From: a phage
DNA: 64,000 nucleotides
Direction: 5' to 3' (one strand)
Sequence record: PZ809289.1
Shown one piece after another: positions 44,963 to 46,188 of the stretch; the first letter of the stretch is position 1; every line of letters starts with the position of its first letter. The notes below the pieces were generated by a model. It had not been told where the DNA came from. It did no database searches and saw only the letters and a list, made by a program, of their open reading frames with translations. The position numbers and the translations under genes were made by a program.

Positions 44963-45991
44963 ATGTCATATGTCGATAGAGAATTTGCTGTACGTGCCTT
45001 GAATTATCAACCTAAATTCAGACAAGTAACTGGTAGTGATTTTAAATTAAACTGTCGTTGTCGTGTATGTGGCGACTCCCTAAAAGATGAGAACAAAGCT
45101 CGTTTTTGGGCCTATCCGGCCAATGACGGCTCCGTAATGCTGCACTGTTTTAACTGTGACTATTCAGCAGGAATTAAGAAGTATCTATACGAATATGAGC
45201 CTGATTTATATCGAGAATATATTCTTGAGAAACATAAAGAGCAATCGTTCGGGAGACAAGCTGCACCTAAGGTGGAGATATCAGAAAAGATTAAAGCCAA
45301 GATGCCTGTCATCGAAAAGCTTAATTTCTGTGAACGTCTGGATAGAATGCCAAAGGACCATCCTATTATCAAATATGTGACGTTACGCTGCATTCCTGAA
45401 AACAAATGGAACCGGCTGTGGTTTACTAAAGAATGGCCGGCATTGGTGAACTCTGTCAATCCAGGGACCTATTCTAAAGAAATGCCTGAGCCTCGTTTGG
45501 TTATTCCAATTTTCAATAAGAATAAACAAATTGAAAGTTTTCAGGGTCGAGCCTTACGTAAAGATGCTCCACAAAAATATATTACAATAAAAGCTCATGA
45601 CCAAGCTACAAAAATATATGGAATGGATACAGTTGACGAACGTCAGTTGGTGTGGGTAATGGAAGGCCCTATTGACTCTTTGTTTGTTCCGAATGCAATA
45701 GCAATTACTGGCGGGTCGTTGGACTTGGCTATGGTTCCATGTAAAGAAACTCGTGCCTGGGTAATGGACAATGAACCCCGCCATCCTGACACAATTAAGC
45801 GTATGCAACGATTAGTTGATGCTGGCGAAAGGGTTCTATTCTGGGACAAGGCTCCATGGCCTTCTAAAGATATAAATGATATGATTATGAAAGATAAAGC
45901 TGATATAAATGATGTACTGGCATATATGAAAGCTAATATAGCCCAAGGTTTAATGGCAAAAATGAGACTTTCAAAATATTCTAAAATTTAG
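44963..45991 (+). CDS. 61: DNA primase gp61
   Basis: 342 aa; zinc ribbon CRCRVCGD...HCFNCDY; ...DAPQKYITIKAHDQATKIYG...HPDTIKRMQRLVDAGERV...IAQGLMAKMRLSKYSKI near-identical to T4 gp61. Confidence 0.95.
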   Translation: MSYVDREFAVRALNYQPKFRQVTGSDFKLNCRCRVCGDSLKDENKARFWAYPANDGSVMLHCFNCDYSAGIKKYLYEYEPDLYREYILEKHKEQSFGRQAAPKVEISEKIKAKMPVIEKLNFCERLDRMPKDHPIIKYVTLRCIPENKWNRLWFTKEWPALVNSVNPGTYSKEMPEPRLVIPIFNKNKQIESFQGRALRKDAPQKYITIKAHDQATKIYGMDTVDERQLVWVMEGPIDSLFVPNAIAITGGSLDLAMVPCKETRAWVMDNEPRHPDTIKRMQRLVDAGERVLFWDKAPWPSKDINDMIMKDKADINDVLAYMKANIAQGLMAKMRLSKYSKI

Positions 45992-46188
45992 GCAGGAACT
46001 CCGCTAAAGAATCCAATTATGCTTAATACGTGTTCCATTGTAACCGCTGGTAAAATTATCCCTTGGCTAGCGGCTACAGGGACTACTAGAAGATTCCAAA
46101 GGAATACGTCTAGCGCAAGAAAACCTAACATCATTTTCTTGTCTTTCTTTTCAGCCAATTTCCAGATTTGGTAAAAAATACTGCCCAT
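45988..46188 (-). CDS. Hypothetical small membrane protein on the opposite strand (66 aa)
   Basis: Minus-strand ORF with near-consensus SD (CAGGAGGATAACATG); stop overlaps stop of 61; no competing + gene in 45992-46279. Confidence 0.5.
   Translation of the reverse strand: MGSIFYQIWKLAEKKDKKMMLGFLALDVFLWNLLVVPVAASQGIILPAVTMEHVLSIIGFFSGVPA

Follow-up and report, generated by a model that had tools for sequence, protein, structure and literature searches.

Introduction

The T4 proteins RI (an antiholin), Imm and Sp are small proteins which are anchored in the inner membrane or exported, carry their functional part in the periplasm, and modulate the timing of lysis or superinfection. Class II holins and pinholins (e.g., S21 68) are membrane proteins of 60-75 amino acids (aa) that are expressed late, and the T4 gene soc, which codes for a soluble capsid decoration protein, is an example of a late-promoter-driven gene amid a block of early and middle genes. 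The focus of this report is a small open reading frame (ORF) that resembles each of these systems in some respects and differs from them in others. It is located on the minus strand of a stretch of phage DNA of 64,000 nucleotides (nt; sequence record PZ809289.1, hereafter the window), between the primase gene 61 and the dCTPase gene 56 (Table 1). The closest known system is a homologue in T4 itself, which the T4T record lists as "dam.1, hypothetical protein" (ADJ39749.1, HM137666).

A first-pass annotation, made from the letters of the window, had described the ORF as a lone convergent gene for a small membrane protein and had suggested that convergent transcription into the primase gene could be regulatory. 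Sequence comparison across T4-type phages identifies the ORF as a genuine conserved gene for a small, predicted membrane protein, and the first of these two proposals thus stands; the second fared less well and is weighed below. Taking all lines of evidence together, we consider it highly likely that the ORF, as the Dhakavirus orthologue of dam.1, belongs to the genuine accessory genes of T4-type phages and encodes a predicted membrane protein expressed late in infection. The gene is already catalogued, as dam.1, as the protein family phrog_2024 and under many "hypothetical protein" entries, and its novelty is low for that reason: the gene call is correct for a known hypothetical family and helps annotation, and it does not reveal a new kind of element.

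A Conserved Coding Frame Between Genes 61 and 56

The window phage belongs to the T4-type genus Dhakavirus (JS98/QL01-like), with bases 44900-46900 sharing 99.4% identity with Dhakavirus QL01 and ~95% with JS98. The product of the small ORF is identical to hypothetical proteins in the phages QL01 (gp028, YP_009202759.1), WG01 and E33, and it matches phrog_2024 of the PHROG collection, a family without assigned function, with residues 1-64 on profile positions 1-64 of 65 (E-value 5.8e-28). Relatives are found at the same place in some 800 phage records and at least ten genera, in which the reading frame is open over 62-74 codons, and amino-acid sequence, length and motif are kept among them down to 15-30% identity. 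When 1.84 billion representative proteins were searched with a profile, only 20 clusters were retrieved, all of which consist of proteins of 45-82 residues bearing the family motif.

The distribution of substitutions over codon positions is that of a translated sequence. Relative to the Marfa homologue, 12, 4 and 38 substitutions were counted at first, second and third positions, respectively, corresponding to proportions of changed nonsynonymous (pN) and synonymous (pS) sites of 0.13 and 0.79. The corresponding counts are 17, 10 and 40 against copy b of VR26, and 31, 12 and 41 between the homologues of T4 and p000v. Over the homologue comparisons as a whole, synonymous sites are saturated and pN lies between 0.13 and 0.36, far under pS. 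Because synonymous sites are saturated and second-position changes are scarce, the conservation is of the protein type and not that of an RNA. An antisense ORF at 46019..46174 on the plus strand has its third positions in common with the small-gene frame; it would, however, require first positions to be the most conserved, it is without counterpart in T4, and we regard it as spurious.

Signals for translation are conserved as well. A Shine-Dalgarno sequence containing GGAG is present at the same site in all examined homologues except VR26 copy b, which has GGTGG, and in the window this sequence, AGGAGG, begins 11 nt upstream of the start codon. The near-consensus ribosome-binding site noted by the first-pass annotation is hence present, and only its spacing has to be amended, since the gap to the ATG is 5 nt and not 8 nt. 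The other elements of that description could be recovered as described, namely the 66-aa ORF itself, the hydrophobic core (LGFLALDVFLWNLLVVPVAA) of its product, a late-type box (AATAAATA) upstream on the minus strand, the tail-to-tail overlap of its stop codon with that of gene 61, and the lack of any terminator between the two genes. For the latter, no terminator-like site was found when both strands of 45400..46400 were scanned, and the 156 nt of RNA 3' of the ORF stop do not fold above shuffled sequence (z = +1.25). The solitary position of the gene on its strand is likewise borne out by the RefSeq annotation of QL01, in which 92 of the 93 coding sequences in the first 50 kb share one strand and the sole exception, gp028, is the counterpart of this ORF.

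Table 1. Features of the small ORF and its surroundings in the window, followed by the forms of the upstream box in relatives.
Feature	Position	Strand	Remarks
66-codon ORF plus stop	45988..46188	-	homologue of T4 dam.1, phrog_2024; ATG start; product MGSIFYQIWKLAEKKDKKMMLGFLALDVFLWNLLVVPVAASQGIILPAVTMEHVLSIIGFFSGVPA
Shine-Dalgarno AGGAGG	46194..46199	-	read from the sequence; 5 nt (ATAAC) to ATG
Stop-on-stop overlap	45988..45991	both	ORF TAA 45988-45990 (-), gene 61 TAG 45989-45991 (+)
Putative gp55-dependent late box AATAAATA	46210..46217	-	A(-13) variant of TATAAATA; 21 nt before ATG
AT-rich stretch TTATTTTAA		-	directly after the late box; nine bases, all A or T
Predicted transmembrane helix, residues ~19-41	46066..46134	-	Kyte-Doolittle maximum 2.05, residues 20-38
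Conserved core W31-N32-x4-P37-x-A-x3-G43-x2-L-P47-x-V49-x2-E52	46033..46098	-	outer helix half and periplasmic loop, as predicted
Gene 61 (primase)	44963..45991	+	
Gene 56 (dCTPase)	46280..46801	+	
soc	46843..47076	+	
MotA-box-like element (putative)	46218..46241	+	CGCTTTA 46218-46224, 11-nt spacer, TATAAT 46236-46241; read from the sequence
Box TATAAATA (perfect)			Marfa, Q7622, CIP9
Box AATAAATA			p000v, window
Box GATAAATA			T4, PM2
Box CATAAATA			VR7, VR26, ECML-359, Mexia
Box TATTAAATA			Moon, CGG4-1

The T4 Homologue and Its Relatives

The T4 homologue is a 66-codon ORF at 17738..17938 on the plus strand of NC_000866.4, inside the 309-bp gap between dam and gene 61, and it shows the same stop-on-stop overlap with gene 61 as well as an upstream AGGAGG and an upstream GATAAATA box. 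It is unannotated in both NC_000866.4 and AF158101.6, and the original JS98 record likewise carries no annotation of the small ORF. In VR7 the family member is VR7ORF033w, and the VR7 record notes its similarity to RB32 ORF030w. The window gene shares with T4 dam.1 and the other members of phrog_2024 the convergent position at the 3' end of gene 61, a length of 62-74 aa, the W-N...P...G..LP.V..E/D core, and the arrangement of Shine-Dalgarno sequence and late box. In contrast, its product shares only ~20% identity with the T4 copy and carries an Asp within the membrane helix.

Relatives were found by tblastn in 139 phage records with the window copy as query and in 698 with the T4 copy as query. 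They belong to the genera Dhakavirus, Tequatrovirus, Mosigvirus, Gaprivervirus, Marfavirus, Kanagawavirus, Mosugukvirus, Gelderlandvirus and Moonvirus, and a large group of Klebsiella phages also carries family members. The family falls into two diverged subtypes, of which the one represented by the window copy is common to Dhakavirus, Marfavirus, Kanagawavirus, Mosugukvirus and Gelderlandvirus phages. Both subtypes occur in tandem in Gaprivervirus, where the T4-type copy is followed by the Dhakavirus-type copy (VR26, locus L006, 595..1001; VR7, locus L016, 595..1070); the second copy is without a separate late box and is intact in VR26. Within the window, an hmmsearch over all six-frame ORFs revealed no paralogue. 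A search for related loci with the single protein returned 9 loci, apparently mostly from phage genomes that are already known, and tblastn with the distant metagenomic member P0132 gave no match in the phage collection. In SP18-like phages the match is restricted to residues 28-66.

The layout of the locus was inspected in the window, T4, QL01, Marfa, VR26, Q7622, PM2, CGG4-1, CIP9, Moon, p000v and Mexia, and in every one of these the small gene runs convergently towards the 3' end of gene 61. The overlap of the two stops is 4 nt long in QL01, T4, Marfa, VR26, CIP9, Moon and p000v, as it is in the window; Q7622 and PM2 have a longer overlap, and CGG4-1 and Mexia have none.

Some family members have received names that point elsewhere, including "dCTP pyrophosphatase" for those of CGG4-1 and IME341 in UniProt, "DNA packaging ATPase" for that of SAKp28 and "Holin" for that of OE5505. 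These wrong names look like carry-over from neighbouring genes or automated labels.

Predicted Topology and Conserved Core of the Product

The N-terminal 17-22 residues of the family members contain 5-7 Lys/Arg, and the C-terminal 25-28 residues contain 0-1; this tail is hydrophobic, includes one conserved acidic residue and has a net charge between -2 and 0. Together with the hydrophobic segment between the two ends, this leads to the prediction of a single-pass inner-membrane protein in N-in/C-out orientation. An AlphaFold2 model, computed from an alignment of 30 sequences, places helices at residues 3-11, 14-41 and 51-62 and a loop at 42-50, with a mean predicted local distance difference test score (pLDDT) of 72.5 that rises to 81-86 mid-protein (helix 14-41).

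Residues W31, N32, P37 and P47 are invariant among 30 diverse sequences, G43 and V49 are at least 90% conserved, and all of these are present in the window protein. The most distant relatives found keep the motif, with the conservative replacements of W31 by Y and of N32 by D and a few other changes. The best reading of this pattern, in light of the modelled topology, is that the conserved surface comprises the outer half of the helix and a short periplasmic segment.

In facing the periplasm, as predicted, the product would be akin to RI, Imm and Sp. It differs from them in that searches of PHROG, Pfam and NCBIfam gave no link to any of the three, and from RI in particular in that it would expose only ~25 residues, far fewer than the periplasmic domain of that protein.

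A Probable Late Promoter on the Opposite Strand

In T4, early and middle transcripts have a single polarity and late transcripts can have either, and there are several sites at which both strands are used for transcription, though not at the same time (PMC2988020). Late expression is thus the expectation for a gene on the opposite strand. The T4 late promoter consists of the 8-bp box TATAAATA followed by an AT-rich stretch, and a -35 element is not needed; among 50 listed late promoters, 32 have the perfect box and 9 have A at position -13, which yields AATAAATA, the commonest natural variant (PMC2988020).

It is this variant that precedes the small ORF of the window, again followed directly by an AT-rich stretch (Table 1), and no other (T/A)ATAAATA is present on the minus strand of the 64 kb. 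Neither form of the box is over-represented in the window: TATAAATA occurs 4 times against 6.2 expected, in all cases on the plus strand, and AATAAATA 3 times against 9 expected. In 11 diverged homologues, a box of the ATAAATA type is found at 13-21 nt upstream of the start codon despite differing flanks, and Mexia has one too; no genus examined lacks such a box. From this positional conservation, AATAAATA upstream of the small ORF is very probably a real gp55-type late promoter.

A comparable case is provided by soc, two genes away from the small ORF, which is a known late gene within an early and middle block and which in the window has a TATAAATA box 31 nt before its ATG. The two differ in that soc lies on the early-gene strand and encodes a soluble protein, whereas the small ORF lies on the opposite strand and encodes a predicted membrane protein. 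A perfect TATAAATA is also present at 44742..44749 (+), 13 nt before the ATG (44763) of gene 61.1, just upstream of gene 61; T4 has no such box upstream of 61.1. With this box and the one at 46210-46217, convergent late promoters would lie on both sides of gene 61 in the window phage. Further perfect TATAAATA boxes are located on the early-gene strand at 688..695 (+) and 8240..8247 (+).

On the other side, the 91-bp region between the small ORF and the divergent gene 56 holds a MotA-like element back to back with the late box. Its CGCTTTA and TATAAT motifs resemble the T4 middle-promoter consensus, and a putative MotA-type middle promoter likely serves gene 56 from here. The arrangement suggests a compact divergent control region, which would combine the middle promoter of gene 56 with the late promoter of the small gene.

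Possible Function and Alternative Explanations

Late timing, membrane insertion and a role in the envelope are properties that we infer for the small gene and its product. The gene would be transcribed late from its own gp55/gp33/gp45-dependent promoter AATAAATA (46217-46210), giving a leader of ~15 nt with a strong Shine-Dalgarno sequence. In the resulting protein, a short basic amphipathic N-terminus would remain in the cytoplasm, one helix (residues ~19-41) would cross the membrane, and ~25 residues would reach the periplasm, forming a G-x2-L-P-x-V-x2-E/D loop and then a short hydrophobic-acidic helix. The motif at the outer leaflet and in the periplasm may contact a partner in the membrane or periplasm, and this contact may tune what happens at the envelope late in infection, for instance lysis timing, lysis inhibition or the exclusion of superinfecting phage. 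An envelope role via such a partner is a tentative proposal, possible at best; as no homology to characterised proteins is available, a role in the envelope or in lysis is a guess from size, topology and timing. In addition, the transcript of the small gene would probably run antisense into the 3' end of gene 61, a read-through that is plausible because neither terminator nor hairpin follows the ORF. Given the purifying selection at the protein level, the lack of conserved RNA structure and the absence of the overlap in some relatives, any antisense effect would be a by-product or a secondary role and not the purpose of the gene.

The regulatory proposal of the first-pass annotation, taken to its conclusion, would place the main function at the level of RNA: a late antisense transcript would shut off or destabilise the gene 61 mRNA, and the ORF would be incidental or secondary. 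The unterminated junction, without a stable hairpin between the ORF and gene 61, the retention of the convergent stop-on-stop layout in most genera, and the precedent of T4 sites with transcription of both strands at different times (PMC2988020) all fit such a mechanism. It is difficult to reconcile, however, with a substitution pattern of the protein type and a motif that persists at 15-30% identity, with the conserved strong Shine-Dalgarno sequence, with the stop overlap missing from CGG4-1 and Mexia, and with RNA folding that shows no excess; moreover, Rho could stop an untranslated antisense RNA. We judge this explanation very unlikely, and a purely RNA-level element was rejected on the grounds of protein-type conservation. 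A regulatory effect on gene 61 through antisense transcription may exist as a secondary one, but it cannot be what the small gene mainly serves. A variant altered in the box only, with AATAAATA changed to AACGAATA, when set against an amber mutant, would part RNA effects from protein effects. The same conservation bears on the notion that the frame between genes 61 and 56 is open merely by chance, and that what is conserved in this spacer is DNA with a regulatory role, for example the promoter of gene 56 or the 3' end of gene 61. The ORF is indeed short, it goes unannotated in the reference T4 records and the original JS98 record, and the spacer does hold a promoter-like region for gene 56. 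A frame that stays open over 62-74 codons in at least ten genera, the codon-position pattern together with the conserved start context, the exclusive recovery of small proteins of the same length and motif from 1.84 billion proteins, and the tandem duplicate in Gaprivervirus phages nevertheless make this almost certainly wrong, and the comparative data effectively refute a chance ORF.

Closer to the proposed envelope role is the possibility that the product is itself a holin, pinholin or antiholin, and hence a direct component of lysis. It is a small protein that is predicted to span the membrane and is preceded by a late-type promoter, and in its length and predicted late expression it resembles class II holins and pinholins. 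Gly, Ala, Ser and Thr abound in the transmembrane helix of the T4 and RB69-type copies, the OE5505 member bears the database name "Holin" in UniProt, and Foldseek gave weak matches to holin-named proteins, with E-values above 1. On the other hand, one true transmembrane helix is predicted and not two, the C-terminal tail is not of the basic, hydrophilic cytoplasmic kind with which holins typically end, and no significant sequence or fold match to holin families emerged from Pfam, NCBIfam or Foldseek. The neighbours are the primase and dCTPase genes and not those of a lysis cassette, and all members read, other than that of OE5505, are called hypothetical. T4-type phages, furthermore, already possess the holin T, the antiholins RI and RIII, and spanins. 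We therefore give little credence to a direct lysis component, which appears unlikely. Membership of a holin family was rejected: of the traits that mark holins, the product shows small size, predicted late expression and at least one predicted transmembrane domain, and neither the basic tail nor a family match or linkage to lysis genes was found.

The preferred reading, a late accessory gene for a membrane protein with a possible envelope role, has to accommodate several observations that weigh against it. The structure model is only moderately confident, with a predicted template modelling score (pTM) of 0.48. The box of the window departs from the consensus at its first position, where T4, PM2 and VR7 have G or C; in Moon and CGG4-1 the box reads TATTAAATA. 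Searches of Pfam, NCBIfam and PADLOC gave no match to characterised proteins, a profile search of the PDB gave only YejA at chance level (E-value 0.47), and Foldseek against BFVD returned family members only, plus non-significant holin-named entries. A literature search on dam.1, VR7 ORF033w, ribosome profiling (Ribo-seq) of T4, and T4 start sites and antisense transcription retrieved nothing on the locus, and neither transcript nor translation or phenotype data came to light for any member of the family. Finally, the second copy in VR7 is frameshifted near its C-terminus and truncated family variants (P0114-P0116) exist; the extra copy, at least, is dispensable.

T4 is among the best-studied viruses, yet its reference annotation omits a conserved ORF in a 309-bp gap that appears "empty", an ORF which is preceded by a late-type promoter box and is predicted to encode a membrane protein. 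A wider proposal is that in the dam.1 family an envelope factor has been overlooked which acts late and is nearly universal among enterobacterial T4-type phages; it would act on holin T/RI timing, lysis inhibition or exclusion, and/or its unterminated late transcript would switch off primase through antisense transcription that converges on gene 61. We regard this proposal as doubtful. Should it be true that lysis timing, exclusion or primase shut-off is affected, a classic system would gain a component, from a family that has never been studied before and that is spread across enterobacterial T4-type phages.

Gene Neighbourhood

The two sides of the small gene differ in their stability among relatives. 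Its junction with gene 61 is constant, and the spacer on its promoter side is a hot spot of insertion. This spacer contains dam in T4, the homing endonuclease gene mobE in IME08 and an HNH homing endonuclease gene in Mexia, and an extra small MazG-like gene is found there in Marfa, F48, CIP9, PEi20 and Moon.

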